Assembly (NCBI GenBank): GCA_020632395.1
Contig: JACKFQ010000002.1
Span: 83,662 to 147,661, forward strand
Length of the DNA stretch: 64,000 nt
Direction of reading: 5' to 3'
Source: Candidatus Nomurabacteria bacterium
GTDB taxonomy: Bacteria > Patescibacteriota > Dojkabacteria > SC72 > JAHDCA01
The notes under the pieces are model-generated. The model did no database searches. It saw only the letters and a list, made by a program, of their open reading frames with translations, and was not told the origin of the DNA. Below, piece after piece: positions 4,495 through 64,000 of this stretch. A program made the translations under genes and the position numbers. Position 1 is the stretch's first letter, and each line of letters starts with the position of its first letter.

Positions 4495-4516
4495 TTCGTG
4501 GCGATAGCCGAGAAAG

Positions 4517-5464: not shown

Positions 5465-5466
5465 TT

Positions 5467-6561: not shown

Positions 6562-6711
6562 TGGTCGGGGAGACAGGACCATCTCGGCAAACATGCCTCG
6601 ATGTATGATGCAGAATAATTCTACTGCATCATAGGTCCCTGCAGTAGGTTCAAGTCCAAATACACCATCCATACAGAGTAAACGACCACCTAACGGTGGT
6701 CATTTACTCTG
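6562..6711. repeat. 150 bp module at the 3' end of tRNA-Pro(CGG); duplicated at 22862-23012
   Basis: Nearly identical to the copy at 22862-23012. Begins with GTCGGGGAGACAGGAC, a 16-nt direct repeat of the tRNA 3' end. Contains the hairpins TGATGCAG/CTGCATCA and GACCACC-TAAC-GGTGGTC. Confidence 0.8.
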
Positions 6712-6785
6712 TCGGGGAGACAGGACTTGAACCTGCGACCTCTGCAACCCGAATGCAGCGTTCTAGCCATCTGAACTACTCCCCG
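6712..6785 (-). tRNA. tRNA-Pro, anticodon CGG
   Basis: Manual cloverleaf: acceptor CGGGGAG/CTCCCCG, D-stem GTTC/GAAC, anticodon arm CTGCA-TTCGGGT-TGCAG, T-arm GCAGG-TTCAAGT-CCTGT, discriminator A. Length 74 nt with no encoded CCA. Confidence 0.85.
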
Positions 6786-6875
6786 AGTACAATATTTCTC
6801 TTAGGTATATCTGGCAAATGAGCCTTATAATAACAACTTTACGAACGTAGTACTATATACGAATTCCACTATCCA

Positions 6876-34684: not shown

Positions 34685-35149
34685 TTATTTTATTTCCAAT
34701 ACTCGATACTCCTTTTCTACTATTCCTGTTGATACAACGACTGTATCTCCTACTCGTTTTCCGATCAAAGCACGACCCACTGGTGATTCATCAGATATCT
34801 TCTTATTGATTGGATCGGCTTCCAAGGAATTTACTATCGTATACTCTTCCTCATATTGTCCAAAACCTACCCTTACTACTGATCCTATCTCAACTTGACT
34901 AGAGTTTGGGTTATCATGAACAATATCGTAGCTTGACAGTATCTCCTTTAACTCAAGAATCCTCTTTTCTAGATATCTTTGATCCTCAAATACATCTGAA
35001 AATGTAACGTCATCCTGATCATTTGGGAGACTTCGTAGCCAATCTAAACTATCTGCTATCTTCTCTCTGCCCTTGGTTTGCAGGTCTTTTAATTCGTTCT
35101 CAAGTTGCTCGACTTTTTGGGCAGATAACTGATACTTATTTTTCTTCAT
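34685..35149 (-). CDS. greA: Transcription elongation factor GreA
   Basis: N-terminal coiled coil plus a C-terminal FKBP-like domain (SPVGRALIGKRVGDTVVV). Confidence 0.8.
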   Translation of the reverse strand: MKKNKYQLSAQKVEQLENELKDLQTKGREKIADSLDWLRSLPNDQDDVTFSDVFEDQRYLEKRILELKEILSSYDIVHDNPNSSQVEIGSVVRVGFGQYEEEYTIVNSLEADPINKKISDESPVGRALIGKRVGDTVVVSTGIVEKEYRVLEIK

Positions 35150-39018: not shown

Positions 39019-39480
39019 ATGCCTGAATCAACACATACGATGACCCAGAAAGGCTTAGACGAATTGAAGGTAGAACTTGATCACCGTATCAATGTCAAAA
39101 GAGAAGAATTAAGGTCTATCGTAGAAGACTCCATTCAAAAAGGAGATATCAGTGAGAATGAAGCCTATGAGCTCGCTCTTGAGGAGACAGAGTCTAATGA
39201 GATGCGGATCGCAGAGCTAGAGAGAGTTATTGGAAATGCTGTTATAGCTACAGATACAGGTATTCACACCGTATCAATAGGTAATACTGTATCAGTAAGA
39301 AGCAGTTCTGGAGATTTGGAAATCCAGATCGTGGGTCAAGCAGAGGCAAATCCACTAGATAATAAGATCAGTGATGCAACACCATTGGGGCAATCATTGA
39401 TCGGAAAGAAAAAGGGTGATAAGGTGACGATCAGCCTTCCAAAAGGTGATGTTGAATATGAGATACTGAATATCTCTTGA
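39019..39480 (+). CDS. GreA-family transcription elongation factor, second paralog
   Basis: Same two-domain architecture as greA (coiled coil; C-terminal SLIGKKKGDKVTI). Confidence 0.7.
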   Translation: MPESTHTMTQKGLDELKVELDHRINVKREELRSIVEDSIQKGDISENEAYELALEETESNEMRIAELERVIGNAVIATDTGIHTVSIGNTVSVRSSSGDLEIQIVGQAEANPLDNKISDATPLGQSLIGKKKGDKVTISLPKGDVEYEILNIS

Positions 39481-48823: not shown

Positions 48824-48837
48824 ACTTTTTTGAGTAG

Positions 48838-49315
48838 TGCAAGTATCCCATAAGCCGGATCCTGTTTATGTGGTCATCTATCTAAGCGGTTCTGACCTTG
48901 CTTCAGGTGGGGGTTACCACGCACTTGCTTATTGCTAAGCGAGCCGGTGGTCTCTTACACCACCATTTCACCCTTACCCCCGCTAACTTATAGTGTCGAG
49001 TGTATCCAATGCTTGTAGTTCGATTTACATTACGCTCTTCTCCCTGACTTGAGACCCTATTTCTCAGTTCGTTCCGGGTCAGCTTTTGGGAGTTTCTGCG
49101 ACAAACTATGCGTTTCTATTTGCGATCTAAAGTGCGATTTTACCTGCAATTCGGCTCTATAGGTTAGCGGGGGCGGTATAACTTTCTGTTGCCCTTTTCT
49201 CCGAAAGATCACTCCCTCCCAGCTCACACTGGCACCTACCCTTTAACGATGGGCCATCATGAAGTCCGGACTTTCCTCTAGGTTTGACCCTAGCGACCAC
49301 TTGAGATACTTGCCC
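48838..49315 (-). ncRNA. rnpB: RNase P RNA, bacterial type A
   Basis: Minus-strand sequence contains AGGAAAGUCCGGAC (P4 5' strand), GGUGCCAG, GCAACAGAAAG ... ACCGCC, GGUAAGGGUGAAAUGGUGGUGUAAGAGACCACC, ACAGGAUCCGGCUUAU (P4 3' strand), and a P1 pairing GCAAGUAUC/GAUACUUGC. P12 appears expanded. Confidence 0.8.
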
Positions 49316-49372
49316 TTGATTATATCATTGTCGAGAGATTTTATGCGATAGAGCAACTTTCAGACAGGAGGT

Positions 49373-49643: not shown

Positions 49644-51020
49644 ATGTATCATGAGATCCGAAGCATAATTCGTCATAGAGGAGAACTAACTGATGTAGCT
49701 ATTCAGTGTGGGATCTCTAGGGGGATCCCGATGATCAAGATGTACGGCTCAATTAGTCGAGAATACTCAAGATATCGGGAATTACTGCCCTATACCTTCG
49801 CACAGGTCGGAAGGAAGCTACCCCAGCGGAAGATCCATATCAATTATTCATCTGATAGCAGTGGTATACAGACCCGAGATCTTGATCTACCAACAGCACT
49901 ATCTATTTATTCAGCAATAAATGCATATGAACAGAGAGACCTGTATGCTATAGGTGAACTCTCCATGGACGGGAAGATCTCGCCTTCAGATGAAACAGGT
50001 GCATTACTTTACATTCTGGATAGCCGATCGGACTTGCGAAAAGCCTCAGTCTATGGAGCTAACCTGATCATCTCAGCAGAAACCTTATTTCCGAATGTAG
50101 AATATATTCAGACCCCAACTTTACTCCACTGTATACGGAATTTAGAAGGAGATATTGATGAATCGAACCAGCGCGGTCAGACAGTTCTGAAAAATTCGCC
50201 TAATTCGGCAATTGTGGAAAGTTCGGATCTGCCACACTTTCTGGCAATCGCATTGGGATTGAATTGTGTTGTGATCGATGAAGATAATTATGCAACCCTA
50301 CCATCAGCGACAGCGAGATCAGCTCATCAGAACGAGGGCGTGTACTCACTTGAGCTAAAAAGGCTCACCAAGGCTATCGGACGCTACCTAGAGCCGATAT
50401 GTTACGACGGAGCTATGATCAATGGTATTACTGGTATTACCCATTTACAGAACCTTCTAGAGCTTTCTAAGAGAACTGGTTCTGGCTGTGCACTATATCT
50501 CAATCTGACATTAACTGATATCAAAGATCAAAAGATACAAGAGCAAGTGATCAAGTTACTTTCTATCCGAACAGGTGTGATCGTGAGTATCCCAAGATGT
50601 CCGTGTGGATGTAGCAAGAGTTGCTCCTGTTCGACAACCGACAGATTAAAACACAAAACTTTCGTTAAAGGTCTTTATGAATCCGTGAGAATAGTTCTCA
50701 GGAATTCTGACATAGGGAGGATCACTCCTCCAAGTTGTTGGTTTGAGGGGGGTAAGAAGAGATTAATGTGGAAAAGTGGGGCCGAAGCACTTTATAGCAA
50801 CACAGAAAACTCAAATCTAAACATAATCAGTAGTGAAGGAGTAAAGAAAACAGCAAATCACAAGAATATACCTCCAGAATTGATCCTAGATACAACAGAT
50901 CACAAAGGACAAAGTACGTTTCTCAAGTACTTCTCTAAAGCAGATTATCTAGATGAGGAAATGAAAGCGACACTCAGAAGAGTGTCGCGAACAAGTCTAG
51001 AAAACATTGAGCTCTTTTAA
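49644..51020 (+). CDS. ComM/YifB (Mg-chelatase-like) family protein with a degenerate, P-loop-less AAA+ core
   Basis: N-terminal Lon-like domain aligns with YifB (ISRGIPMIKMYG ... RKIHINYS ... DLDLPTALSIY ... GELSMDGKI). The NPCPCG-like motif IPRCPCGCSKSC is present. No GPPGTGKT Walker A motif is identifiable. Confidence 0.55.
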   Translation: MYHEIRSIIRHRGELTDVAIQCGISRGIPMIKMYGSISREYSRYRELLPYTFAQVGRKLPQRKIHINYSSDSSGIQTRDLDLPTALSIYSAINAYEQRDLYAIGELSMDGKISPSDETGALLYILDSRSDLRKASVYGANLIISAETLFPNVEYIQTPTLLHCIRNLEGDIDESNQRGQTVLKNSPNSAIVESSDLPHFLAIALGLNCVVIDEDNYATLPSATARSAHQNEGVYSLELKRLTKAIGRYLEPICYDGAMINGITGITHLQNLLELSKRTGSGCALYLNLTLTDIKDQKIQEQVIKLLSIRTGVIVSIPRCPCGCSKSCSCSTTDRLKHKTFVKGLYESVRIVLRNSDIGRITPPSCWFEGGKKRLMWKSGAEALYSNTENSNLNIISSEGVKKTANHKNIPPELILDTTDHKGQSTFLKYFSKADYLDEEMKATLRRVSRTSLENIELF

Positions 51021-51415
51021 CGTTTGGAGAATTGTGGTTTCTTTCGAGCTTTTCTTCGGTTATATTTCTTTCTCTCAACCATCCTTGGGTCTCGTGTCAC
51101 TAATCCTTTCTTTCGAAGATCAGGTTTGAGAGTCTCATCCATTTCGATCAGCGCTCTTGCGATACCCAATCTTACTGCTTCTCTCTGACCTGTAATACCA
51201 CCACCTACAACATGAGCTGTAAAATACATCTCTTTTTCCTTACCTGAGATGGCTAAAGGAGAGATAACATCTGCATATTCTCCTCGTGCATCAAAGTACT
51301 CTTCCGCGGGGACATCATTTACAACAGAAGCTTTACTTCCTGTGTATATCCTAACCCTCGCTGTGGAGGTTTTTCTTCTTCCGATTCCTTCAAAATATCT
51401 CTCAGCCACGTTCAT
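51017..51415 (-). CDS. rpsI: 30S ribosomal protein S9
   Basis: GRRKTSTARV and a C-terminal KR-rich tail. Confidence 0.9.
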   Translation of the reverse strand: MNVAERYFEGIGRRKTSTARVRIYTGSKASVVNDVPAEEYFDARGEYADVISPLAISGKEKEMYFTAHVVGGGITGQREAVRLGIARALIEMDETLKPDLRKKGLVTRDPRMVERKKYNRRKARKKPQFSKR

Positions 51416-51418
51416 TCA

Positions 51419-51856
51419 TTATGATAACTTATATTCTACTGGCTTCTGTGCTGAATGCTTATGATCACTGGTAGGGTACACAAACAATCTCGTCATCATT
51501 CCTGAGCGAAGTTTATTGTTTGGTAGCATGTTCTTTACTGCATTCTCGATCACAAATTCACTTTTCTTCTGTATCTGCTTATCAAAAGTAATAGTCTTTG
51601 CTCCTCCTGGATACCCACTATGTCTAAAGTATGTTTTCTGAGTAGCCTTATTACCAGTCACCTTAACCTTATCACTATTGATCACGATCACATAGTCACC
51701 ACAGTCCAGATTAGGTACTTTGTTGACTTTGCCTTTACCGATAAGTAAAGAAGCGATCACTGTTGATACTCTTCCTAAAACCTGGTCGGAAGCATCGACT
51801 AAATGCCATTTTCTTTCAATATCTGTCGGTTTTACCCAGGTTGTGTTTTGTTTCAT
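51419..51856 (-). CDS. rplM: 50S ribosomal protein L13
   Basis: WHLVDASDQVLGRVST N-terminus. Confidence 0.9.
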   Translation of the reverse strand: MKQNTTWVKPTDIERKWHLVDASDQVLGRVSTVIASLLIGKGKVNKVPNLDCGDYVIVINSDKVKVTGNKATQKTYFRHSGYPGGAKTITFDKQIQKKSEFVIENAVKNMLPNNKLRSGMMTRLFVYPTSDHKHSAQKPVEYKLS

Positions 51857-51880
51857 CTAATTAATAGTAATATATTACAA

Positions 51881-52444
51881 TTATATTCCGGATCGGCTTC
51901 TTGCTCGCTCTTTTCCAACAAATCTGTTCTTTAGATTCTTTGCTAGACTTTTCGCTTTATCACTCTCTCTTTCCTCTTTTGCTTCTCGTAATTCAACAGC
52001 ATCCTCATCTTGGACTGGAGGTTTTTTATCCTTCGTATCCTGTTTCAAAGGTGTCTTTTGAACAACACTCTTCTGAGTCTTTATATCCTTCTTGACCTTT
52101 GAAGAGAATCCTTGAAGGGATACCCTCGATACCTCAGCATTGTCTCCATCTCTAAATCCAACCTTAACGATCTTGACCTTTGGAGATGACTTGAGATATT
52201 CGACCATCTTGTTTGCTGAGCTATCATCACCTAATAGGGTCAAAAGTTCATATTTCCTTACCTTCTCTGCCTTTGAGTTCAGATCGTTCAAGTACGACTC
52301 TACATTAGCTTTTAAAACTTTTGCTTTTGGAGTAGTTGTCGTCACCTTACCATAGGTTAAGATAGATCTTACCTGATTCTTGATCAAAGATCTTCGATGC
52401 GACACCTTCCTACCTAATTTTCTTCTTCCTGCTAGCTTATACAT
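51881..52444 (-). CDS. rplQ: 50S ribosomal protein L17, with a C-terminal extension
   Basis: GRRKLGRKVSHRRSL core, plus about 70 extra basic/acidic residues. Confidence 0.85.
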   Translation of the reverse strand: MYKLAGRRKLGRKVSHRRSLIKNQVRSILTYGKVTTTTPKAKVLKANVESYLNDLNSKAEKVRKYELLTLLGDDSSANKMVEYLKSSPKVKIVKVGFRDGDNAEVSRVSLQGFSSKVKKDIKTQKSVVQKTPLKQDTKDKKPPVQDEDAVELREAKEERESDKAKSLAKNLKNRFVGKERARSRSGI

Positions 52445-52449
52445 CTGTA

Positions 52450-53421
52450 TTACTCTGATTTAATTTCAATATTATACTGACCTAGTAGATCCAAAACTTC
52501 ACTAAGAGATTTGTTACCGAAACCTGGTAGATTTAATAGGTCTGTAGTAGTTGCATTTGATACATCTGCGATAGTTTCAAAACCCCCGGCTAGAAGTCCT
52601 GACTTTGATCTCTTTGATATTGGAAGATCTTCAACCCTCCAAGAGAGAACTTCTTCATTCACCGAATCTCCGCTACCTTCTGCAACAACTTCCTGTACCT
52701 CTCGAGCCTGTTCGGCTAACTCCTCAACTTCTCTTACAGGAACACCTAGTGCAGCCATAACCTTACCTGCAAAATCTTGTAGGATCTTTGCAGAACTTAG
52801 TAGTGCATCTTGTGGTGTGACACTTCCATCAGTTGTGACAGTAATGTGGACAGCATCAAGATCGGTAGCTTGACCCTTACGAGCATTGACTACTTCAAAA
52901 CTTACTTTCTTGACCGGAGAAAAATCAGCATCGACAGGGATCATACCCATTTCGGTTCTATGATCCTCATCAGCAGGTCTATATCCGATACCTTTTTCGA
53001 TGGTCAATTCTAGTTTTAGTGCAGATGTCTTACTAGTTAGAGTTGCTATGTGCATATCTGGATTTGTTACCTCAACAGGACCAGAGATCTGTACATCAGC
53101 ACCAGTAACCTCCCTTTGACCTGTAACATCGATCATACAAACCTGAGGGTCATCGGACTCTAACCTAAAACGCAATCCCTTTAGATTCAAAAGAACTTCA
53201 ACAACATCTTCCTTCATACCTTCGATTGTTGTGTATTCGTGATCTACACCATGAACCTTAACAGCTGTTATTGCAGCTCCTGAGAGGCTAGAAAGTAGGA
53301 TCCTTCTTAGCGAGTTGGCCAATGTATGACCATACCCCCTAGGAAGTGGAGTGATCTCATATTCACCAACTACACCTTCTTCTCTGATTGCTTTAACTTT
53401 TAGATCTTTGAAATCTATCAT
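52450..53421 (-). CDS. rpoA: DNA-directed RNA polymerase alpha subunit
   Basis: NTD and CTD motifs present. The start is placed at the internal Met MIDFKDLK because the longer ORF, which runs to 53514, would overlap rpsD. Confidence 0.85.
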   Translation of the reverse strand: MIDFKDLKVKAIREEGVVGEYEITPLPRGYGHTLANSLRRILLSSLSGAAITAVKVHGVDHEYTTIEGMKEDVVEVLLNLKGLRFRLESDDPQVCMIDVTGQREVTGADVQISGPVEVTNPDMHIATLTSKTSALKLELTIEKGIGYRPADEDHRTEMGMIPVDADFSPVKKVSFEVVNARKGQATDLDAVHITVTTDGSVTPQDALLSSAKILQDFAGKVMAALGVPVREVEELAEQAREVQEVVAEGSGDSVNEEVLSWRVEDLPISKRSKSGLLAGGFETIADVSNATTTDLLNLPGFGNKSLSEVLDLLGQYNIEIKSE

Positions 53422-53440
53422 TCTTATATAATTCTTAAGC

Positions 53441-54052
53441 TTATCTAGAATAGAACTCAATAATAAGGTTCTCCTTGATCCCTGGATCAATATCCTCTCG
53501 GGATGGAAGCCCAATTACTTTACCTCTCTGTGTTTGAGACTCTAACCAAGGAGGAGTTGTTATCAACTTCTCACTAGGAACAAGCGTAGGTTTACTGACC
53601 TCTACCTCATCACCTATCTTTACATTGTGAGAAGGGATGTTTAAGGTCGCACCATTCACTCTTACATGCTTGTGAGTCACAAATTGTCTCGCTGCAGACC
53701 TTGATGGTGCCAATCCTAATAGGTAGATGACATTATCAAGTCGTGTTTCTAGTAAGGAAAGTAGCTCTAATCCTTTATCTGAATTATTTACCTTAGATCG
53801 TCTATCTGCTTCCTTATACATATTTTTGAATTGCCTTTCTCGTACACCATACATTCTTTTTACTTTCTGCTTCTCTCGAAGTTGTAGTCCGTAGTTAGAT
53901 AACCGCACTCTTCGTTTATTTCCATGTTGTCCAGGTGGATAAGGCTTCCTAGCGACAGCGTTCTTATCCGAATAGGATCTTGAACCCTTTAGAAATAGAT
54001 TAACGCCTTCTCTTCTACTTAGTTTGCCTTTTGGTCCTGTATATCGTCCCAT
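53441..54052 (-). CDS. rpsD: 30S ribosomal protein S4
   Basis: MGRYTGPKGKLSRREG start. Confidence 0.9.
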   Translation of the reverse strand: MGRYTGPKGKLSRREGVNLFLKGSRSYSDKNAVARKPYPPGQHGNKRRVRLSNYGLQLREKQKVKRMYGVRERQFKNMYKEADRRSKVNNSDKGLELLSLLETRLDNVIYLLGLAPSRSAARQFVTHKHVRVNGATLNIPSHNVKIGDEVEVSKPTLVPSEKLITTPPWLESQTQRGKVIGLPSREDIDPGIKENLIIEFYSR

Positions 54053-54075
54053 TTATCAATATTTTGAAATAATTA

Positions 54076-54456
54076 TTATTTTCTAGGTTGCTTTCTTGGT
54101 CTACAGCCGTTGTGAGGGATAGGGGTTCTGTCAGTGAGCATCGTCACTTTCAAACCTGCAGAATCTAAACCTTTCACCGCTGCATTCCTGCCAGTACCTG
54201 CTCCGGCAATATATACCTTCACTTCTTTTAACCCATATTTCTTCATAGCTGCCAAAGCTGCTTCTTTAGCTGCTTTTGTAGCTGCAAAGGCTGTACTTCG
54301 CTTCGAACCAGAGAATCCGACTGCTCGTGGACTACCCTGAACCAAAGTTGCACCTTCTTGATCTGTTATCGTGATGATCGTGTTATTGAATGTAGCCTGA
54401 ATATAAGCATTCCCAGACTGTACATTTCTTTTCTTTGATTTGGTCTTCTCAGCCAT
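54076..54456 (-). CDS. rpsK: 30S ribosomal protein S11
   Basis: Conserved core (ATFNNTIITITD ... GSKRSTAFAA). Confidence 0.9.
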   Translation of the reverse strand: MAEKTKSKKRNVQSGNAYIQATFNNTIITITDQEGATLVQGSPRAVGFSGSKRSTAFAATKAAKEAALAAMKKYGLKEVKVYIAGAGTGRNAAVKGLDSAGLKVTMLTDRTPIPHNGCRPRKQPRK

Positions 54457-54483
54457 CTAATTATCCTACTAAATTACAATTAA

Positions 54484-54867
54484 TTAGGTCTTGGTTATCT
54501 TCCGCTTCAACCCACCGACCGCTTGTGATTTACCCTTCCTTGTCCTTGCATTCACTCGTGTTCTTTGACCCCGAACAGGCAAACCCAGCTTGTGTCTTAC
54601 ACCTCTGTACGATCGGATATCCTTCAATCTCTTAATATTTCTAAAAACCTTCTGTCTCAACTCACCCTCAACCTCATAATTATCTTCAATATATTTTCGT
54701 AATTCGTTAAGCTCTTTTTCAGAAAGATCTGACATAATCTTATCAGGATCGATCCCAAGATCAGAAAGGATCTGAGTAGCTATAGAATCTCCAATCCCAT
54801 GGACATAAGTTATGGATATACTAACTTTCTTATTTTCAGGGATCTCTATGTTGGCGACTCTAGCCAT
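54484..54867 (-). CDS. rpsM: 30S ribosomal protein S13
   Basis: MARVANIEIP start. Confidence 0.9.
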   Translation of the reverse strand: MARVANIEIPENKKVSISITYVHGIGDSIATQILSDLGIDPDKIMSDLSEKELNELRKYIEDNYEVEGELRQKVFRNIKRLKDIRSYRGVRHKLGLPVRGQRTRVNARTRKGKSQAVGGLKRKITKT

Positions 54868-54885
54868 TGATCTTTAATAATAATA

Positions 54886-55002
54886 TTATCCTTGCCTTTG
54901 CTTATGCTTTGGCTCTCTTTTGCAGTAAACATACACTCGACCTTTACGTCGAACTATATAACAGTGCCTGCACCTGGTTTTTACAGACGATTTTACTTTC
55001 AT
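54886..55002 (-). CDS. rpmJ: 50S ribosomal protein L36 (38 aa; absent from the ORF track)
   Basis: Manual translation gives [38 protein letters not shown], with the Zn ribbon C-x2-C ... C-x4-H. Confidence 0.85.
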
Positions 55003-55009
55003 TATCCTA

Positions 55010-55252
55010 CTATTTATATCTATAAACGATACGTCCCTGATTTGGGTCGTAAGGAGTCATCTCGACCTTGACCTTATCACCTTCAAGAATTCGGATGTAG
55101 TACATCCGCATCTTTCCGGAAAGGTAGCCAGTGACTACATGCTTCCTACCATTTACCTCTATCTCTACTAAGAATTTAGTATCAGGCAGGCATTCCTTCA
55201 CTACGCCGTCGATCTCTACTACTTGTTTACTTGCCTGGGACATTATGTCCAA
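55010..55252 (-). CDS. infA: Translation initiation factor IF-1
   Basis: S1-like OB fold ending in the GRIVYRYK tail. Confidence 0.9.
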
Positions 55253-55321
55253 TTTATACTAAAATCTTAAGCTTTCCTTAAAAATCCATCGGATTATAAC
55301 AAAGGATCTATACATATGCAA

Positions 55322-56065
55322 TTACCATGATGTCAGAATTTTTGGCTTCTGATCAACAACAATTGTATGCTCGAAAAGTGCTGAGAGCATACCATCTTCC
55401 GTATAGCTTGTCCAGCCATCATCTATAGAAATAAAGATGTCTGGTAGACCCTGATTTACGATAGCCTCTATAGCTAAGGTTTGGCCTCGGTATAACTCCT
55501 GTCCTTTACCTTTTCGCCCATAGCCAGGCACATATGGTTCCTCGTGTAGATCGTACCCTATTCCATGTCCAACCATTTCTTTTACAACTGAATATCCATT
55601 CTTCTCAACAATTTCCTGCATAGCATGACCGATATCACCGACATGATTTCCCGGCTTTGCATTAGCTATCCCTGCCAAGGTAGCATCTTTGACAACATTA
55701 ACGAATTTCTTTATCTCATCTGAAACTTCACCGATAATTACGGTATACGATGTGTCACTGTAGACATCCTTATACTTGATACCAAAATCTACACTGAGAA
55801 CATCCCCATCCTCAAGGACATAATCATCAGGTATTCCGTGAACCACTACATCATTAACACCAGTACATAACGTAGCAGGGAAACCTTCATATCCTTTGAA
55901 TGCTGGGATCACTTTATTATCAATACATAACTGCTCTGCATACTGATCTAGTTCGATCAAAGATACTCCTACGGAAACTTTGGAAAGTACATTTCTGAGG
56001 ATCTCAGAACAGATCACTCCTGCTTCCTCCATCTTCACGATCTTTTCTGGGTCATACTTACGCAT
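55322..56065 (-). CDS. map: Type I methionine aminopeptidase
   Basis: Metal-binding D/D/H/E/E pita-bread motifs. Confidence 0.9.
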   Translation of the reverse strand: MRKYDPEKIVKMEEAGVICSEILRNVLSKVSVGVSLIELDQYAEQLCIDNKVIPAFKGYEGFPATLCTGVNDVVVHGIPDDYVLEDGDVLSVDFGIKYKDVYSDTSYTVIIGEVSDEIKKFVNVVKDATLAGIANAKPGNHVGDIGHAMQEIVEKNGYSVVKEMVGHGIGYDLHEEPYVPGYGRKGKGQELYRGQTLAIEAIVNQGLPDIFISIDDGWTSYTEDGMLSALFEHTIVVDQKPKILTSW

Positions 56066-56747
56066 ATTTTTGCAACTCCTTCAGTAAATTTTCATGAATT
56101 ACCTCAATCGAAGGTGTTGCGTCGATCTCAAGCAGGATACCTCTGCTACGATAGGTATCTAATATTGGTTTTAGATCGTCATTATACCATTCCAAGCGTT
56201 TTGCTATAGCATCAGGATTGTCATCCTCTCGTTTGACAAGAGGTGTTCCATCATTATCACAAAAACCTTCTTTTTTCTCTTTTTTGTATAGTGAATGGTA
56301 TGTAGTACCACATTTTTCACAGTAGGTTCGCAGAGACATCCTCTCGATAGCTGCTGATTCTGTAAGTTTGAAATGTACAAAAAGATCTAAGGTTCGGTCG
56401 AACTTCTGAACAAGTTTATCAAAAAGATCGATCTGTGTTTCTTTTCGGACAGGTGATACAAAGAACCATGGTTTTTTGGGGTCAAGCCTAGGTAACCACT
56501 CCTCAAAGATCAAATATACATCTTCATCAGAAGCTAGCTTGCCAACCCTGGTATTCTCATAGGCGCTAAGTGCTCTGGGATGACCTTCTTTTTTTAATAT
56601 CTCCATTAAGCTACTAAACCCTATCCTTTCATAATCGATCGTTCTTTCAAGGAGATCCAATTGCGTATCTTTCCCTGAACCTGATGGCCCATGAAAAATT
56701 GCAGTTCTGAGTGTTTTTTTAGAGGTATCTATCATAACTTCGTACAA
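56058..56747 (-). CDS. adk: Adenylate kinase (canonical operon copy)
   Basis: GPSGSGKDTQ P-loop, LID with CEKCG. Confidence 0.9.
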   Translation of the reverse strand: MYEVMIDTSKKTLRTAIFHGPSGSGKDTQLDLLERTIDYERIGFSSLMEILKKEGHPRALSAYENTRVGKLASDEDVYLIFEEWLPRLDPKKPWFFVSPVRKETQIDLFDKLVQKFDRTLDLFVHFKLTESAAIERMSLRTYCEKCGTTYHSLYKKEKKEGFCDNDGTPLVKREDDNPDAIAKRLEWYNDDLKPILDTYRSRGILLEIDATPSIEVIHENLLKELQKYA

Positions 56748-57990
56748 CGATCATTGATTCGATCTGACGTTTGATCTCAAGTACTGTACCAATAATGATC
56801 AGTAGACCAGTTCCTGACATTATCGTTGCAGATAATATACCTGTCTGAACAAGCACATTTGGGAGGATTGCAAGTGTAGCTAAAAATACTCCCCCTACTG
56901 CAGTTAATCGGAATGATGATTTCCTCAAGAAAGATGCAGTTTGTTTACCAGGCCTGATACCGGGGATGAAAGCTCCTTGTTTCTGCAAATTCTCAGCTAA
57001 CTCATCCGCGTTGAAAACAACTGTCACATAGAAGAATGAAAATGCTATTACCAGGAGGAATGTTGCTATATCTACCGTAAGTGGGTTAGAAAGATATCGT
57101 ATGATATCAGATGAGATCTCAGTCAATTTGGTATTGAAATCCCTACTCACTAGGAATTGTGCTATCAATTGTGGGAAACTTATCAATGAAACGGCAAAGA
57201 TCACTGGCATCACACCAAATTGTGTAAGCTTGATAGGGACATAATTATCTTGCACACCAGTAGCCCTAACTCTGCGTGAGTACATTACCTTTATTCGTCT
57301 CTCTCCTTGTGTGAGGAAAATAGTTATTGCAAAGATCGCCAAAAGGATAAACACAAACCATATCATCTGTAACGTATCAGCTGTTCTGATATTGTTAGAA
57401 ACAATGCTTGGTAGAGAAGCGAGAATTCCTATAGCTATGAGGTAGGATGATCCTTGCCCTATACCTTTATCTGTAACAAGTTCGCCCATCCACATCATCA
57501 GTAGTGCGCCTCCTGTGAGAGCACTAACCATGGTAATGAGTTCCAAAGTTTGTAGTTCTCCGACCAATCCGAAGCCTCTAAGAGTTGAGTATATAACGAA
57601 TGATTGAAGGATTGCGAAAGGAACTGTGAGATACCGTGTGTACATACTAATGATCCTTCGACCCTGTGAACCTTCCTTCCGAAGTTCTTCTAGTTTGGGG
57701 ATAACGGTTCCTAGAAGTTGGAGGATGATAGAAGCATTGATATATGGTCCTAATCCGATAGCTACAATTGATGCAGTCTCAAGCACTCCACCAGAGACCG
57801 TTGATATTGTATCTCCGATACCACCTAATTGACCAAATAACTGTGAAAGACTTTCACGATCTATACCAACAACAGGTACAGCAGCAAGCAATCTGAAAAT
57901 TACCAATATAATGACGATAAAGTAGACCCTCTGTCGGATCTCAGGTGTAGAGTAGGCTGCTTTGATTGATTGGATAGAGTCCTTTAACAT
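56719..57990 (-). CDS. secY: Preprotein translocase subunit SecY
   Basis: 423 aa with 10 TM helices and the operon context. Confidence 0.9.
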   Translation of the reverse strand: MLKDSIQSIKAAYSTPEIRQRVYFIVIILVIFRLLAAVPVVGIDRESLSQLFGQLGGIGDTISTVSGGVLETASIVAIGLGPYINASIILQLLGTVIPKLEELRKEGSQGRRIISMYTRYLTVPFAILQSFVIYSTLRGFGLVGELQTLELITMVSALTGGALLMMWMGELVTDKGIGQGSSYLIAIGILASLPSIVSNNIRTADTLQMIWFVFILLAIFAITIFLTQGERRIKVMYSRRVRATGVQDNYVPIKLTQFGVMPVIFAVSLISFPQLIAQFLVSRDFNTKLTEISSDIIRYLSNPLTVDIATFLLVIAFSFFYVTVVFNADELAENLQKQGAFIPGIRPGKQTASFLRKSSFRLTAVGGVFLATLAILPNVLVQTGILSATIMSGTGLLIIIGTVLEIKRQIESMIVVRSYDRYL

Positions 57991-58022
57991 TTACTTGATA
58001 ACAATTTGATAAAGATATGATA

Positions 58023-58466
58023 CTACTTGACCTGACCTTTGGCATCCAATATCTTCTTTTTTGCTGATTCAGATACCAGAAGTCCTTCTACAACAACTTT
58101 TTTCTTGATCGAACCTAATCCAAGAACTTTGACATTCTCTTTAGATTTTTTGATCAAACCCTTCTCCCGAAGTGTATCTAAACTGACGGTATCGCCATCA
58201 CTAAAATACTCTTCAATGGTATGAACATTTATCACCTGATTCTCGATCCTATACGGCTTATTAAATCCTCTGTATTTAGGCATTCTTCTAAAGAATGGTG
58301 TATTCCCTCCTTCAAACATTACCATTGATTTGTGTCCTGATCGCGACTTCTGTCCTTTAACACCACGACCAACTGTATGACCTCCTTTTGTAGAACCGTA
58401 TCCACGACCTACTCTTTTCTTAGGCATTACTCGATTTTTTCTTTTTGGTAGGTTCTGTAATTTCAT
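58023..58466 (-). CDS. rplO: 50S ribosomal protein L15
   Basis: GRGxGSGxGKT-like N-terminus (GRGYGSTKGGHTVGRG). Confidence 0.9.
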   Translation of the reverse strand: MKLQNLPKRKNRVMPKKRVGRGYGSTKGGHTVGRGVKGQKSRSGHKSMVMFEGGNTPFFRRMPKYRGFNKPYRIENQVINVHTIEEYFSDGDTVSLDTLREKGLIKKSKENVKVLGLGSIKKKVVVEGLLVSESAKKKILDAKGQVK

Positions 58467-58485
58467 AAGTATTGTTTAAGAAATA

Positions 58486-59289
58486 TTACTCACTTTTTGA
58501 TTCTGATGTAGATCCGGTATTCTTAACCTCTGAAGTTGGCTCGACTGGTTTTTCTGCTGTAGTGGGTTTCTCGACAGGTTTCTCAGCTGGTGCGGGCTTC
58601 TCTACTGGTTTCTCAACCTTAACTTCCTTAGTCTCAGCTCTTGGACCGGAGTTTCTTCTTGAGTTATCTCCTCGGCCTCTGTTGCCCCCACCTTTTCTAC
58701 CACCACCTCGTCGATTACCCTTTCCTTCTCCTTTATCCTGTTCTTTGTTCTTCTTTCTTAATAATTCTTCTCGAGCTTTTCTCTCTTTATCCAATTGCTC
58801 CTTGAGGTTCAACCTGTCTTTCATATTGTGCATTCTCTCAAGAACTCTTTTACTTCTCAGTTCTGTTAGTGCTTCAAATGTACAGTAAGCATTTGCTACT
58901 AGGTCACTAGATCCCATGATCTTGCCATATACATTGTCTACTCCACACATTTCGAGGACAGTCCTGACGGAGGATCCTGCGATCACCCCTGTACCTGGTC
59001 GTGCAGGTCTCAACATGACCTTAGCAGCACCCTTCTTTTGAACTATCTCATGAGGGATAGTGTCACCAACTACTTGTATTTTTCGTGCATTCTTTTCTGC
59101 TTTTTTGATAGCTTTCTCGACAGCGGATCTAGTATCGGTACCTCTACCTAGTGCTACTCCCACAGTTCCATTCCTATCACCAACAACAACCATCGCGCTG
59201 AAGCGAAGTCTTTTACCTCCAGCTGTGACCTTGGCCACTCTTCTGATAGATACTGTCTGTGATTCGTATTTGCTCTCTCTTCTTCTCAT
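58486..59289 (-). CDS. rpsE: 30S ribosomal protein S5 with a long K/E/P-rich C-terminal extension
   Basis: S5 core in the first 160 aa, followed by about 100 aa of KPVEKPA-type repeats. No L30 gene lies between rpsE and rplO; the gap is 19 nt. Confidence 0.85.
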   Translation of the reverse strand: MRRRESKYESQTVSIRRVAKVTAGGKRLRFSAMVVVGDRNGTVGVALGRGTDTRSAVEKAIKKAEKNARKIQVVGDTIPHEIVQKKGAAKVMLRPARPGTGVIAGSSVRTVLEMCGVDNVYGKIMGSSDLVANAYCTFEALTELRSKRVLERMHNMKDRLNLKEQLDKERKAREELLRKKNKEQDKGEGKGNRRGGGRKGGGNRGRGDNSRRNSGPRAETKEVKVEKPVEKPAPAEKPVEKPTTAEKPVEPTSEVKNTGSTSESKSE

Positions 59290-59309
59290 TAGTTACTTTT
59301 ATTAGATAA

Positions 59310-59639
59310 TTACATTTGTATCCCAGATTCTCTCACTCCATCGGCAACAGCCTGTACTCTTCCGTGATAAACATATCCACTTCGATCAAATACAGCTGTT
59401 GTAACCTTCTTCTTTTTTAACTCTTTTCCGATCTCGATACCGATCTCCTTAGCTCTCTTAAGATCCTTAGAGGTTCGCTTTGACATCAACACCTTACCGG
59501 TTACATCATCAGCTACTCCAACCAGAAGATATTTGTTGCTTTTATAAACAAAGATCCTTGGTCTCTCTGAAGTTCCCGAAAGCTTCTTCCTGATATATTT
59601 TTTTCTTCTTATTCTTCTGACTTCTTTCTTATGTGCCAT
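59310..59639 (-). CDS. rplR: 50S ribosomal protein L18
   Basis: Conserved core and operon position. Confidence 0.9.
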   Translation of the reverse strand: MAHKKEVRRIRRKKYIRKKLSGTSERPRIFVYKSNKYLLVGVADDVTGKVLMSKRTSKDLKRAKEIGIEIGKELKKKKVTTAVFDRSGYVYHGRVQAVADGVRESGIQM

Positions 59640-59660
59640 AACGGTTACGTATTGATATTA

Positions 59661-60209
59661 CTACTTCACAACTGCCTTCGCACTCTTCTGTCTAACATAT
59701 TCTCCCTCATATCTGATACCCTTTCCTTTATAGGGTTCCGGTTTTCTATATTCTCTTATTCGTGCTGCGACCTCTCCTACCTTCTGTTTATTATGACCTT
59801 TGACTACGATTGTTGTTTCATCAGGCACCTCAAAGGTAATGTTTTCTGGTGCAGGAAAAATAATCGGGTGATTCCATCCTAAGGACATTGATAATCCAGT
59901 ACCCTCTGTTTTTACCCTGTATCCTACTCCATGTATCTTTAATGTCTTTTGGAAACCGTCCTTTGCGCCAATAATTGCACTATCTATAAGGCTTCTGACT
60001 GTTCCATGTAGTGATCTTGTTAACTTTGTTTCATCGGTTCTATCTACTGTAATAGTATCACCATCGATATGAATATTGATACCTTGAGGAATGTAAACGA
60101 TATTCTCCCCTAAAGGACCTTTAACGATAAGTTCATCAGCAGAAACTTCTACTGATACACCTTCTATAATTTTTATTGGTTGTATTCCGATCCTAGACAT
60201 CTTTACCAA
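59661..60209 (-). CDS. rplF: 50S ribosomal protein L6
   Basis: Two-domain L6 fold. Confidence 0.9.
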   Translation of the reverse strand: MVKMSRIGIQPIKIIEGVSVEVSADELIVKGPLGENIVYIPQGINIHIDGDTITVDRTDETKLTRSLHGTVRSLIDSAIIGAKDGFQKTLKIHGVGYRVKTEGTGLSMSLGWNHPIIFPAPENITFEVPDETTIVVKGHNKQKVGEVAARIREYRKPEPYKGKGIRYEGEYVRQKSAKAVVK

Positions 60210-60586
60210 ATATTACAAATATATTCTCCACCGACACCTTTTGACTTTGCCATTGCTCCTGTCATCAAACCATCAGAGGTACTGATGATCGATATCCCTC
60301 TACCATTCATGATGGGTATGATCTGCTTTGAACTGACATACATTCTCTGACCTGGTGTACTGACCTTAATAAAGTGCCTTACAACAGGATCTCCCGCTTC
60401 ATTATATGTAGGATTAACGATGATCGTATCTCCCTCCACTTTAAAATCATCAATAAAACCTTCGTGTTTCAAGATCTCAACGATCGATAGAACCATCTTA
60501 CTATTTAGTAATTCTATCTCATCAGCTCCACGCTGAATCCCATTGTTCATTCTTGCTAAACTGTCCGCGACTATGTCATTTACCAT
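60203..60586 (-). CDS. rpsH: 30S ribosomal protein S8
   Basis: Conserved core and operon position. Confidence 0.9.
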   Translation of the reverse strand: MVNDIVADSLARMNNGIQRGADEIELLNSKMVLSIVEILKHEGFIDDFKVEGDTIIVNPTYNEAGDPVVRHFIKVSTPGQRMYVSSKQIIPIMNGRGISIISTSDGLMTGAMAKSKGVGGEYICNIW

Positions 60587-60602
60587 AATAGTTTCAATAA
60601 TA

Positions 60603-60797
60603 TTACCAAATAGCTTTCTTTACACCTGGGATCTGCCCTTCATGTGCCATCTGTCTGAAGCATATCCTGCATAAACCGAATTCTCTGATATAACCCCTAG
60701 ATCTACCGCAAACCATGCATCTATTGTAAGCTTTTGTCGAGTGCTTCTGTTTTAACTGATATCTTCTCTGTTGTACGACCTTAGACTTTTTTGCCAT
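60603..60797 (-). CDS. rpsZ: 30S ribosomal protein S14, Zn-ribbon type Z
   Basis: 64 aa, MAKKSKV ..., with C-x2-C ... C-x2-C. The longer ORF running to 60851 is an N-terminal artefact that overlaps rplE. Confidence 0.85.
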
Positions 60798-61335
60798 CTT
60801 TCTTAAAAGGGAATCCGAATTTATCCAATAACAGCTTTGCATCCTTATCATCCTGAGCTGACGTAACTATAGTAACCTGCAAACTCCTTAATTTCTGTAC
60901 TTTATTTGGGTCGATCTCTGGGAATACTGTATGCTCTTCGATACCTAATGAGTAATTTCCAGACCCATCAAAAGCTTTATATGATACACCTCTAAAGTCT
61001 TTTGTTCTAGGGAAAACAACATTTACTAGTTTATCAAAGAATTCCCACATCTTTTCCCCTCTAAGTGTTGTATATACTCCAATATCCATTCCCTCTCGCA
61101 ATTTGAATGTTGATACTGCTTTCTTTGACTTTGAAACAACAGCTTTCTGACCAGTTATCAACTCTATGATCTCAACAACCTCTTCAATAGCAGAACTGTT
61201 CGTAGTTGCTTCACCAACACCCGAATTAACAACTATCTTTCGTAGGGTAGGGACTTCCATAACATTCCTATATCCACCCTCTTTGAGTAGTTCTACCTTT
61301 ATTTCTTTTTCATAGATTTCTTTTAATCTTGCCAT
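60781..61335 (-). CDS. rplE: 50S ribosomal protein L5
   Basis: [13 protein letters not shown] start. Confidence 0.9.
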
Positions 61336-61343
61336 ACTACTTT

Positions 61344-61793
61344 TTATTTATCTTTTGTTTCTGACTTTTCTTTTTTGACCTCTACTTTTTTAGTATCTTT
61401 TGCTACCTCTTTCACATCTTCTTTTTTAGTATTCTGTGTTGATTTGGGTTTAACTGCTTTTTCGTTTCCTTTACTGACTGGCTTTGTATCAACAGGCTTA
61501 CCAGTTCGTACAGAGATCCTTTCCTTCCCTCTACCATTTGTTGACATCTTGACCCTTGTTGCCTTACCACTCTCAGGATCAACCAACATAACCTTTGATA
61601 CAGGAAGAGGCTTAAGAACAGTTGCAATCTCTGCTACTCTACCCCGTCCATCTCCCTTTACACTTTTCTTGAACTCATTGATCCCTTCCACTACAACCTT
61701 CATATCCTTTCTAAAAACACGAACCACTTTTCCGGTCCTCCCAGAATCTTTCCCGTAAAGTATTTTTACTGTATCACCTTTCCTTATTTTCAT
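61344..61793 (-). CDS. rplX: 50S ribosomal protein L24 with a C-terminal K/E-rich extension
   Basis: KOW motif MKIRKGDTVKILYGKDSGRTGKV. Confidence 0.85.
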   Translation of the reverse strand: MKIRKGDTVKILYGKDSGRTGKVVRVFRKDMKVVVEGINEFKKSVKGDGRGRVAEIATVLKPLPVSKVMLVDPESGKATRVKMSTNGRGKERISVRTGKPVDTKPVSKGNEKAVKPKSTQNTKKEDVKEVAKDTKKVEVKKEKSETKDK

Positions 61794-62158
61794 AATACTT
61801 CTGGCGCTCTAGATAATATCTTGTCAAATTTCTTTTCTTTTAATTCTCTTGCTACAGGTCCAAATACTCTAGTTCCCAAAGGTGCTTTCTTAGCATCAAT
61901 TAGGACACATGCATTATCATCAAACCTAATATACGAACCATCAGATCTCTTTGTTTCTTTAGCAGTCCTGATCACTACAGCTTTAAATACCTGGTGAGCC
62001 TTGATATTACCATTTGGTAATACATCTTGGATAGCTACAGTTATGACATCTCCAACTCGTGCCCACCTTCTTCTTGAAGCACCTGGGATGCCGATAACCT
62101 TAGCCTTTTTGGCTCCGCTATTATCTGCAACAATTAATACGCTTTCTGTCTGTACCAT
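61790..62158 (-). CDS. rplN: 50S ribosomal protein L14
   Basis: MVQTESVLIVADNSGAKK start. Confidence 0.9.
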   Translation of the reverse strand: MVQTESVLIVADNSGAKKAKVIGIPGASRRRWARVGDVITVAIQDVLPNGNIKAHQVFKAVVIRTAKETKRSDGSYIRFDDNACVLIDAKKAPLGTRVFGPVARELKEKKFDKILSRAPEVL

Positions 62159-62169
62159 AATTACTACCT

Positions 62170-62427
62170 TTATTTATCAAGTACTTTCACAACTACCCAT
62201 CTTACGGTCTTTGAGTATGGTCTGGATTCTCTTATTACAACAGTATCACCTTCTACAACATTCATCTCATTATGTGCCATGAACGAATTTCTGCTCGATA
62301 CGATCTTGTGATATACAGGATGTCTCACAGGTGCTTCTACAACTACCTTAACAGTATTTTGCATCTTAGTGCTGACAACTGTTCCTTGTAATTCTCTACC
62401 CTTATTTTTTCGTTGTTCCAAAGCCAT
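62170..62427 (-). CDS. rpsQ: 30S ribosomal protein S17
   Basis: Start placed at MALEQRKNKGRELQGTVVS (85 aa). The ORF track extends to 62586 through a non-homologous N-terminal stretch that overlaps rplP. Confidence 0.8.
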   Translation of the reverse strand: MALEQRKNKGRELQGTVVSTKMQNTVKVVVEAPVRHPVYHKIVSSRNSFMAHNEMNVVEGDTVVIRESRPYSKTVRWVVVKVLDK

Positions 62428-62491
62428 GCTTAAAACCATAAAATTACGCTGAAGGATTCTATCAGTAATCCCTTTACTAATCAATAAAAAA

Positions 62492-62905
62492 CTACAGTTC
62501 TGTTCTCGTGACCATCTTAGTCTTGATCGATAATTTGTGTGACGCCAATCTGAACGCCTCTTTTGCGATCGTTTCTGTGACCCCACCGATCTCGAACATA
62601 ACCGTACCAGGCCTCACTACTGCAACATATCCCTGTACATCTCCTTTTCCGGCTTCCATTTTTGCATTAGTAGGCTTCGCAGTATATGATTTTTGAGGGA
62701 ATATCTTGATCCATACCTTTCCTTTTCTCTTGATGTAACCTACGATAGCTCGCCTTGCAGATTCTATCTCTCTAGAGTTTATCCAACCTCTACCTGTTGC
62801 TTTAAGACCATAATCACCAAAGTCGACATTGTTGTTGGCCATTGCGACACCACCCATCTTGCCTCTAAACTCTTTTCTAAATTTTGTTTTCTTTGGTTGT
62901 AACAT
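62492..62905 (-). CDS. rplP: 50S ribosomal protein L16
   Basis: MLQPKKTKFRKEFRG start. Confidence 0.9.
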   Translation of the reverse strand: MLQPKKTKFRKEFRGKMGGVAMANNNVDFGDYGLKATGRGWINSREIESARRAIVGYIKRKGKVWIKIFPQKSYTAKPTNAKMEAGKGDVQGYVAVVRPGTVMFEIGGVTETIAKEAFRLASHKLSIKTKMVTRTEL

Positions 62906-62935
62906 TTTTATTGTATCTTATTCATTTATTCGTAA

Positions 62936-63580
62936 TTATCTGCTCTCAGTTTCTGCAGATTCTGGTCGGTATACCCATACTTTAATTCCAAACTTACCTA
63001 AATCGTGTGTTTCAGCAACATCTTTTGCAAAATCAATATTCGCTTTTAAAGTATGTAGAGGTACCGGACCATCATGATGTTTGATGGTTCTTGCTTGAGA
63101 AGCACCGTTGATCCTACCAGAAACCCAGATCCTGATACCCTTTGCTCCTGATGCCTTTGCTTTTTCGATCGCATTCATTGCTAATAATTTTGGAGGCATC
63201 CTCCTCAATAGACCACTTGCTATCTCAGCAGCGATAATACTTGCAGACATATCAGGTTTTTTAACTTCACTAACCTTTAATTCAATATTTGTATCAACTA
63301 CTTTTTTCAATTTTTTAGTTATTGTTTCGATACCAGCGCCTCCACGCCCAATCGCTACACCAGGTCTTGCTACATATACATTTACTTCACAAGCTCCGAC
63401 TGTCCTAGAGATCTCAACTCTGTCGATACCGGCAGCAGAGAGTTCTTTTCGAACAAGATCTCTGAGCTTCTTATCTTCATGTAGGAACTTAATATATTCG
63501 GGGCCCTGCTTATACCACCTAGATTTCCAGGTTTTACTGATCCCCATCCTCATTGCATTTGAATTGATCTTGTGTCCCAT
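62936..63580 (-). CDS. rpsC: 30S ribosomal protein S3
   Basis: MGHKINSNAMRMGI ... KH domain. Confidence 0.9.
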   Translation of the reverse strand: MGHKINSNAMRMGISKTWKSRWYKQGPEYIKFLHEDKKLRDLVRKELSAAGIDRVEISRTVGACEVNVYVARPGVAIGRGGAGIETITKKLKKVVDTNIELKVSEVKKPDMSASIIAAEIASGLLRRMPPKLLAMNAIEKAKASGAKGIRIWVSGRINGASQARTIKHHDGPVPLHTLKANIDFAKDVAETHDLGKFGIKVWVYRPESAETESR

Positions 63581-63583
63581 ATC

Positions 63584-63931
63584 TTACTTCGACATCGAAA
63601 CCTCTAAATTTAGGTTGGATCTTCTTTTGTTGATCTTATTAACTCTTGCTCTTGATGCGAACCTATATCTCTTGAGAGTAGGTGCTTCATCAACCGAGAT
63701 ATGAGTGATAATAAGTTTCTCCGGACTCCCCTCAAACTTCTCCTCTGCACTGCTCACAGCTGATTTTAGTGCTTTTGTAACAAATATTGCACCCTTCTTG
63801 TTAGTAAATCTCAATAGATCGAGAGCTTTTTGTACATTCATGCCACGAACCATATCAGCTACCAATCTCAATTTCAACGGAGATTGGGCTAAGTTCTTTG
63901 CTTTAATTTTTGTCTTTTTTATCTCGACCAT
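63584..63931 (-). CDS. rplV: 50S ribosomal protein L22
   Basis: Conserved core and operon position. Confidence 0.9.
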   Translation of the reverse strand: MVEIKKTKIKAKNLAQSPLKLRLVADMVRGMNVQKALDLLRFTNKKGAIFVTKALKSAVSSAEEKFEGSPEKLIITHISVDEAPTLKRYRFASRARVNKINKRRSNLNLEVSMSK

Positions 63932-63949
63932 GTTTATCTATCTATAAAT

Positions 63950-64000
63950 CTATTCAAATCTACCAGAACTTCCATATACTTTCGCTAGTTTACCCTTCTT
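63950..64000 (-). CDS. rpsS: 3' end of a gene running off the right edge, probably ribosomal protein S19
   Basis: Minus-strand frame ... KKGKLAKVYGSSGRFE ends at TAG 63950-63952, which is 18 nt upstream of rplV. Identity is inferred from operon order only. Confidence 0.35.
   Translation of the reverse strand, partial: KKGKLAKVYGSSGRFE

Follow-up and report, generated by a model that had tools for sequence, protein, structure and literature searches.

Ribosomal protein cluster and its two empty slots

The DNA analyzed here is a 64,000-nucleotide stretch from the metagenome-assembled genome of an uncultured bacterium, hereafter called the window, which means the whole of that stretch. At 51017-64000, its minus strand carries a colinear S10-spc-alpha cluster of ribosomal protein genes, as established from the list of open reading frames (ORFs), from Pfam scans and from the genes called on a public contig of identical sequence. 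The genes follow one another in the order L22, S3, L16, S17, L14, L24, L5, S14, S8, L6, L18, S5, L15, SecY, Adk, Map, IF1, L36, S13, S11, S4, RpoA, L17, L13, S9. Two genes are missing from their usual sites, namely rpmC (L29) between L16 and S17 and rpmD (L30) between S5 and L15. An earlier note, made from the sequence alone, had flagged the absence of L29 as less expected and in need of confirmation. In this study, the empty L29 slot proved to be real and conserved across a whole clade of related lineages, and its spacer contains a predicted promoter.

The L16 stop codon ends at 62492 and the S17 gene starts at 62427, which leaves a gap of 64 nucleotides (nt), or of 52 nt with the in-frame ATG at 62439 that the gene callers choose. 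Because L29 is 55 amino acids (aa) or more in length, neither gap can hold it. Similarly, 19 nt lie between the end of the S5 stop codon at 58486 and the L15 start at 58466. Hidden Markov models (HMMs) of L29 and L30 were built from 74 and 49 genes, respectively, taken from the expected gaps in loci retrieved by means of L16, and an additional L29 HMM was made specific to Dojkabacteria. In the six-frame translation of the window, with frames of at least 20-25 aa, the L29 and L30 models gave nothing better than E ~2; with the same models, control L29 genes from other Candidate Phyla Radiation (CPR) loci and from Dojkabacteria reached E-values of 1e-15 to 1e-37. A tblastn search of Dojkabacteria L29 against the window also gave no match. 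Furthermore, the Dojkabacteria L29 HMM found no match in the window together with about 110 kb from eight other L29-less loci (about 175 kb in total), and all five positive controls in that search were matched at 1e-22 to 1e-37. L30 is present in the S5-L15 gap of 49 non-CPR loci and absent from that of the window. Collectively, both spacings and both absences given in the earlier note were borne out by measurement and by the searches of the window; L36, of which that note says nothing, is present at 54886-55002.

A remnant or pseudogene of L29 in the L16-S17 spacer was also considered and ruled out, given that the spacer is too short and shows no HMM signal. As for S14, it is the short zinc form that the earlier note had recognized, with 64 aa and four cysteines (Cys27, Cys30, Cys43 and Cys46), and the relatives carry the same short zinc form.

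Lineage placement

The closest L16 relatives are labelled WS6 or Dojkabacteria and share 64-72% identity with the window copy. We constructed a neighbor-joining tree from seven proteins (S3, L16, S17, L14, L5, S8 and L6; 1012 columns, 500 bootstraps), in which all Dojkabacteria-type loci, including the window, are monophyletic in 100% of the bootstraps. These results support the assignment of the cluster to Dojkabacteria/WS6, a class of the CPR/Patescibacteria, as an otherwise ordinary ribosomal protein supercluster, and they give a name to the CPR-like lineage suspected earlier. Because the organism belongs to the CPR by this assignment, its lack of L30 is an instance of a known CPR-wide trait: uL30 is absent from all CPR, and uS5 lies next to uL15 (PMC9297842).

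In NCBI, the label 'Candidatus Nomurabacteria' is attached to this organism (GCA_020429305.1) and to one of the related loci, L001 (JACKFR01). Since the ribosomal proteins nest within Dojkabacteria/WS6 with 100% bootstrap support, this label is probably wrong for both. S5 and L16 proteins identical to those of the window are encoded in GCA_020429305.1 (contig JAGQLN010000006), in assemblies from ENA and Logan, and on a 1,090,961-bp contig; the last is the longest of 33 contigs with an L16 protein identical to the window copy.

Distribution of L29 among related lineages

In a first comparison, we examined the 80 best L16 loci, with one genome per species. A short L16-S17 gap was observed in only three of them, all of Dojkabacteria type (L001, L002 and L021). 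In the remaining 77 loci, which include Peribacteria, Gracilibacteria and another Patescibacteria locus, the gap measures 195-348 nt and contains an L29 gene. Five further L29-less lineages (L091, L092, L093, L095 and L096) were identified from the context of L16 relatives, and across the eight lineages besides the window the L29-less spacers are 46-127 nt long. All five Dojkabacteria-type L29 loci that were read (L090, L094, L097, L098 and L099) have L29 (PF00831) in the canonical slot between L16 and S17. In L090 (GCA_016932785.1) and L094, the L29 gene overlaps both L16 and S17, and the L29 genes of L097, L098 and L099 were recovered by exhaustive phmmer plus profile search. A metagenome scan based on S17 yielded three loci only, all of them L29-bearing and non-Dojkabacteria.

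The tree groups the nine L29-less lineages into a single clade in 99% of bootstraps, and its sister clade (100%) comprises the five L29-bearing lineages. Over the seven proteins, members of the L29-less clade are as little as 56-66% identical to the window, so the split within this clade appears to be deep. Because the L29-less lineages form a single clade and the sister clade keeps L29, a single ancient deletion of rpmC in the ancestor of the L29-less clade would be the parsimonious reading.

A separate observation concerns the Gracilibacteria locus L010, where the L29 gene at 10409-10630 is broken into two frames under translation table 11. An alternative genetic code is used in the Gracilibacteria lineage; this would fit the split L29 of L010, and table-11 ORF lists fail there.

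Search for a relocated L29 gene

An rpmC gene elsewhere in the genome, which the earlier note had named as the outcome speaking against a loss, was looked for by profile on long contigs and in the window and was not found among the best 120 of 149 matches. These matches came from a search of the Dojkabacteria L29 profile against 5.8 billion proteins, which returned 149 matches at E up to 1e-3, the best 120 of them listed. For a test of co-occurrence, the size of the longest contig carrying each L29 match was compared with the same value for the L16 matches. Only two lengths, 598,548 and 8,449 bp, coincide between L29 and L16 among these best 120 of 149 matches, and both belong to L29-bearing controls. 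None of the 120 lies on the contigs of 1,090,961, 643,854, 480,107, 395,711, 266,017, 230,490 or 208,023 bp that bear L16 of the L29-less clade. Moreover, the profile search gave about 24 L29 clusters below 1e-14, versus more than 100 L16 clusters of the L29-less clade in the top-120 L16 list. When 1.84 billion representatives were searched exhaustively with phmmer, only a handful of close L29 relatives came up. A single Dojkabacteria L29 used as the query matched itself alone, the word index being too insensitive for so short a protein. We infer that rpmC was deleted and is absent from the genome, rather than having moved.

Conserved promoter-like motif in the vacated slot

All nine L29-less spacers contain the same arrangement, consisting of TTGnnn, exactly 17 nt ending in TGn, and TA(G/A/C)AAT, and the surrounding and intervening bases vary. 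In the window, the -35 element TTGATT occupies 62484-62479, the TG 62464-62463 and the -10 element TAGAAT 62461-62456, with a predicted transcription start near 62449. Over the 64 kb, the full pattern was counted a single time, versus 0.12 occurrences expected. No comparable spacer exists in the L29-bearing relatives, and the motif is missing from their L16-S17 stretch.

The TGnTAnAAT element recurs at 14 nt upstream from a tRNA and within the map-infA spacer; in the latter, it is combined with a TTGCAT -35 element at 17 nt. Similarly, an extended -10 element, TGATATAAT, is located at 49319-49327, 6 nt upstream of the 5' end of the RNase P RNA. The L16-S17 and map-infA spacers are the two largest of the cluster. 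Based on its conservation across lineages, the L16-S17 motif appears to be an active internal sigma-70 promoter, and rpsQ and the downstream spc genes could then be transcribed apart from the S10 part. The map-infA site probably serves as another internal promoter, driving infA-rpmJ-rpsM and the genes that follow.

The RNase P RNA gene (class A; 48836-49312, minus strand) measures 477 nt for a 367-position model and thus probably carries insertions.

C-terminal tails of S5, L17 and L24

The Pfam domains extend up to residue 149 of the 267 in S5, residue 109 of the 187 in L17 and residue 99 of the 149 in L24. L17 and L24 are indeed extended, as had been claimed, with tails at residues 110-187 and 100-149 beyond their domains. 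The three tails are of low complexity, 45-52% charged and net positive (+10, +9 and +6 for S5, L17 and L24, respectively). In the S5 tail (about 118 aa), three parts can be distinguished: a charged segment, a stretch rich in RGG and an EKPVEKPAPA repeat. The first can be aligned with L001 and L021 up to about residue 194-238, the second is peculiar to the window species, and a 30-nt tandem repeat (about 25 aa) is the sole truly repetitive part. The earlier description of a KPVEKPA-repeat tail of about 100 aa is thus right in that the tail is long; the repeat itself is far shorter than described, comprising only 2.5 copies of 30 nt.

In all Dojkabacteria loci of both clades, S5 measures 201-275 aa versus 145-164 aa in other CPR loci, and L24 measures 129-166 aa versus 88-116 aa. 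The non-Dojkabacteria comparison loci have a median S5 length of 164 aa and a median L24 length of 103 aa. L17 has 178-220 aa in the Dojkabacteria relatives, except for 130 aa in the L29-less L091. In particular, the L29-bearing Dojkabacteria have an L24 of 145-162 aa, an S5 of 201-214 aa and an L17 of 220 aa. The tails thus appear to be a Dojkabacteria-wide trait that predates the loss of L29, which refines the earlier view that the extensions fit a CPR-like lineage. They are probably disordered segments that bind the rRNA surface, by analogy with other ribosomal protein extensions discussed in PMC9297842.

The L24 proteins also differ in their cysteines. In the L29-less loci L002 (8345-8797) and L021 (1048-1470), L24 keeps a zinc-ribbon-like CxxC...CxxC pair, and in the window (61344-61793) and L001, all four cysteines are lost.

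Feature coordinates and other observations in the window

The features of the cluster are listed in Table 1.

Table 1. Genes, spacers, promoter-like sites and repeat of the S10-spc-alpha cluster, in window positions.
Feature	Position	Strand	Support
rplV (L22, 115 aa)	63584-63931	-	PF00237, E 2.8e-30
rpsC (S3, 214 aa)	62936-63580	-	KH_2 + Ribosomal_S3_C
rplP (L16, 137 aa)	62492-62905	-	PF00252, E 1.6e-43
L16-S17 spacer, usual rpmC (L29) site, 64 nt	62428-62491	-	sequence read; no L29 HMM match
Predicted sigma-70-type promoter in L16-S17 spacer	62456-62484	-	conserved in 9/9 L29-less lineages; also in consensus-scan list
rpsQ (S17, 85 aa; 89 aa from alternative start 62439)	62170-62427	-	PF00366, E 1.3e-23; gene calls of 85 and 89 aa
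rplN (L14, 122 aa)	61790-62158	-	PF00238; gene calls of identical locus L081
rplX (L24, 149 aa; core 1-99; Lys/Glu-rich tail 100-149 at 61347-61496)	61344-61793	-	KOW + PF17136
rplE (L5, 184 aa)	60781-61335	-	PF00281 + PF00673; gene calls
rpsN (S14, 64 aa, short Cys4 zinc form)	60603-60797	-	PF00253, E 2.7e-25
rpsH (S8, 127 aa)	60203-60586	-	PF00410; gene calls
rplF (L6, 179 aa by gene call)	59661-60200	-	PF00347
rplR (L18, 109 aa)	59310-59639	-	PF00861, E 1e-30
rpsE (S5, 267 aa; core 1-149; tail 150-267 at 58489-58842)	58486-59289	-	Pfam S5 N- and C-domains
30-nt tandem repeat, 2.5 copies, within S5 tail	58540-58615	-	Tandem Repeats Finder score 96, 80% matches
S5-L15 spacer, usual rpmD (L30) site, 19 nt	58467-58485	-	sequence read; no L30 HMM match in window
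rplO (L15, 147 aa)	58023-58466	-	PF00828
secY	56719-57990	-	PF00344; gene calls
adk	56058-56747	-	PF00406; gene calls
map	55322-56065	-	PF00557; gene calls
Second promoter-like site, map-infA spacer	55293-55321	-	TTGCAT, 17 nt with TG, TATAAT; sequence read
infA	55010-55252	-	ORF list, Pfam, gene calls
rpmJ (L36)	54886-55002	-	ORF list, Pfam, gene calls
rpsM	54484-54867	-	ORF list, Pfam, gene calls
rpsK	54076-54456	-	ORF list, Pfam, gene calls
rpsD	53441-54052	-	ORF list, Pfam, gene calls
rpoA	52450-53421	-	ORF list, Pfam, gene calls
rplQ (L17, 187 aa; core 20-109; charged tail 110-187 at 51884-52117)	51881-52444	-	PF01196
rplM (L13)	51419-51856	-	PF00572; gene calls
rpsI (S9)	51017-51415	-	PF00380; gene calls

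At the end of the cluster, a ChlI/ComM-like gene (49644-51020, plus strand) is convergent with rpsI, with a 4-nt overlap between the two 3' ends. In addition to the adk gene of the operon, a 356-aa ORF at 7298-8368 (minus strand) contains an adenylate-kinase domain stretched across residues 56-253. Within window positions 1-6800, the GC content is 0.32 at 2001-4000 versus about 0.40 elsewhere, and a tyrosine recombinase/integrase gene (5591-6403, plus strand) adjoins a tRNA gene (6712-6785, minus strand); the low-GC stretch and the integrase beside the tRNA may represent an integrated element. Two GreA/GreB-family paralogs are located less than 5 kb apart, at 34685-35149 (minus strand) and 39019-39480 (plus strand). 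Moreover, four large ORFs gave no Pfam match at E up to 1e-5: 12534-15794 (plus strand, 1086 aa), 15823-17499 (minus strand, 558 aa), 18524-19771 (minus strand, 415 aa) and 19902-22103 (plus strand, 733 aa).

Discussion

We hold with good confidence that these observations are best explained by an ordinary Dojkabacteria supercluster with a single loss of rpmC, a promoter in the vacated slot and tails of older origin. The rpmC gene would have been deleted once, in the ancestor of the L29-less Dojkabacteria clade, and 50S subunits would since have been assembled without uL29 at the tunnel exit. The remaining spacer would act as a sigma-70 promoter, from which rpsQ and the spc genes would be transcribed independently of the S10 part. 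The tails would have arisen before the loss of L29, as disordered net-positive segments on the rRNA surface. It also seems likely that this whole deep Dojkabacteria clade has ribosomes without uL29 and uL30, and that its rpmC slot was turned into an internal promoter, with the S10/spc boundary moved upstream of rpsQ.

Several points weigh against this interpretation, and most of them bear on whether rpmC is truly gone. The genome-wide absence of rpmC rests on indirect evidence, since the DNA scanned amounts to the roughly 175 kb of L29-less loci; the co-occurrence test spans the best 120 of 149 matches and a word-index prefilter that missed the relatives of a single L29; and a very divergent or uncalled small L29 gene would evade these searches. 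The main text of PMC9297842 omits Dojkabacteria from the phyla without uL29, an omission that could fit a split phylum or the detection of L29 in some genomes by other methods. The same omission would also suit a relocated rpmC gene, located elsewhere in the genome beyond the window, as would the small share that the window represents of a genome of roughly 1 Mb and the short, fast-evolving nature of L29, for which a single-sequence search retrieved only itself. However, the Dojkabacteria-type L29 genes whose context was read all sit in the canonical slot, the best 120 of 149 profile matches include none on the long contigs of the L29-less clade, L29 matches in the scanned DNA of that clade number zero, and the slot has been remodelled into a conserved, predicted promoter across a deep clade. 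Because of the co-occurrence result and the five canonical contexts, we regard relocation as unlikely. An artefact of assembly or binning, such as a contig that collapsed or became chimeric at the L16-S17 junction, is conceivable for a metagenome-assembled source. It is at odds with the same arrangement in independent assemblies of the organism (NCBI, ENA and several Logan runs), with its recurrence in eight other lineages whose ribosomal proteins are merely 56-66% identical to those of the window, and with the conserved spacer motif common to all L29-less lineages, and its probability is practically nil.

The promoter has points against it as well: its activity is deduced from sequence conservation alone, and a consensus promoter scan of the single genome was at chance level (32 sites found versus 34 expected), so the promoter claim rests on conservation across lineages. 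The conserved motif might instead be an element at the RNA level, such as an operator that controls the translation of rpsQ or of the spc genes, as ribosomal protein operons are often autoregulated via mRNA structures and the spacer is transcribed if upstream read-through happens. Conservation is, however, confined to the -35 element, the 17-nt spacing and TGnTAnAAT, with the positions between and around them varying freely; the same extended -10 element is found at distances typical of promoters before both the RNase P RNA and a tRNA; and no covarying stem was noticed, without a formal test for one. Collectively, these features make an RNA element quite improbable, and a sigma-70 promoter remains our preferred reading of the motif. 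Finally, the tails of the tunnel-exit proteins L24 and L17, and of S5, might have evolved to replace the lost L29, given that bacterial 50S structures have L24, L17 and L29 around the tunnel exit and that the tails are net positive and of low complexity. The tails are, however, present in the L29-bearing relatives too, with equally long L24 and L17 and an extended S5, and they are therefore not read as compensation for the loss. Moreover, the L29-less L091 has an L17 of normal length, and S5, as part of the 30S subunit, lies far away from the position of L29. We consider compensation by the tails very improbable and favor their origin before the deletion of rpmC.

If true, this would be a natural, long-standing and clade-wide deletion of uL29 in environmental bacteria, with a sister clade that has the protein available for comparison. 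It would add a well-defined ribosomal protein loss to those of the CPR, comprising one event and a sister clade retaining the gene; the general picture of reduced CPR ribosomes would be unchanged. Together, uL23 and uL29 form the platform at the tunnel exit for trigger factor and the signal recognition particle. The pairing of the two clades bears on how this platform is remodelled once uL29 is gone, as well as on the rewiring of operon boundaries after a gene deletion. Furthermore, the use of L29 as a single-copy marker in completeness estimates for Dojkabacteria genomes would come into question, as it would be systematically 'missing' in this clade.

Comparison with known systems

In E. coli, an internal sigma-70 promoter divides the long ribosomal protein array into transcription units. 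The cluster described here resembles the E. coli S10/spc boundary in that an internal sigma-70 promoter, predicted in this case, splits the array. It differs in position, since the E. coli spc promoter lies after rpsQ and before rplN, whereas the predicted one lies before rpsQ, at the former position of rpmC. The S14 is ordinary: it is like the short Cys4 ('C+') S14 of Firmicutes, Thermus and many bacteria, which has about 61-64 aa and a CxxC...CxxC pattern and is encoded between rplE and rpsH.

The ribosomal protein repertoire of the CPR has been described by Brown et al. 2015, as cited in PMC9297842, and by Tsurumaki et al. 2022 (RNA 28:1041). The cluster agrees with the repertoire in PMC9297842 in lacking uL30, in its small uS14 and in the presence of lineage-specific C-terminal extensions on some ribosomal proteins, although S5, L24 and L17 are not among the proteins that this paper gives as enlarged in the CPR. 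According to the same source, bL28, uL29, bL32 and bL33 were lost lineage-specifically in the CPR; its main text names the loss of uL29 for some Peregrinibacteria and names Dojkabacteria only for the loss of bL9. In contrast, the loss of uL29 maps here to one of two deep Dojkabacteria clades. Lineage-specific loss of uL29 in the CPR is thus already published, and what is new is a phylogenetically sharper case, together with a conserved promoter predicted in the slot.

Beyond the CPR, a COG survey (Nikolaeva et al., bioRxiv 10.1101/2021.01.31.429008) places L29 among the frequently lost ribosomal proteins and among the early-binding proteins that can be lost or deleted, and some genomes, such as that of Ca. 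Fokinia solitaria, are without both L29 and L30. As in these insect and protist symbionts, a surface protein of the large subunit has been lost from a small genome. The symbiont cases are, however, isolated endosymbiont genomes, whereas here the loss would be fixed across a deep and diverse environmental clade, with the vacated slot now a predicted promoter.

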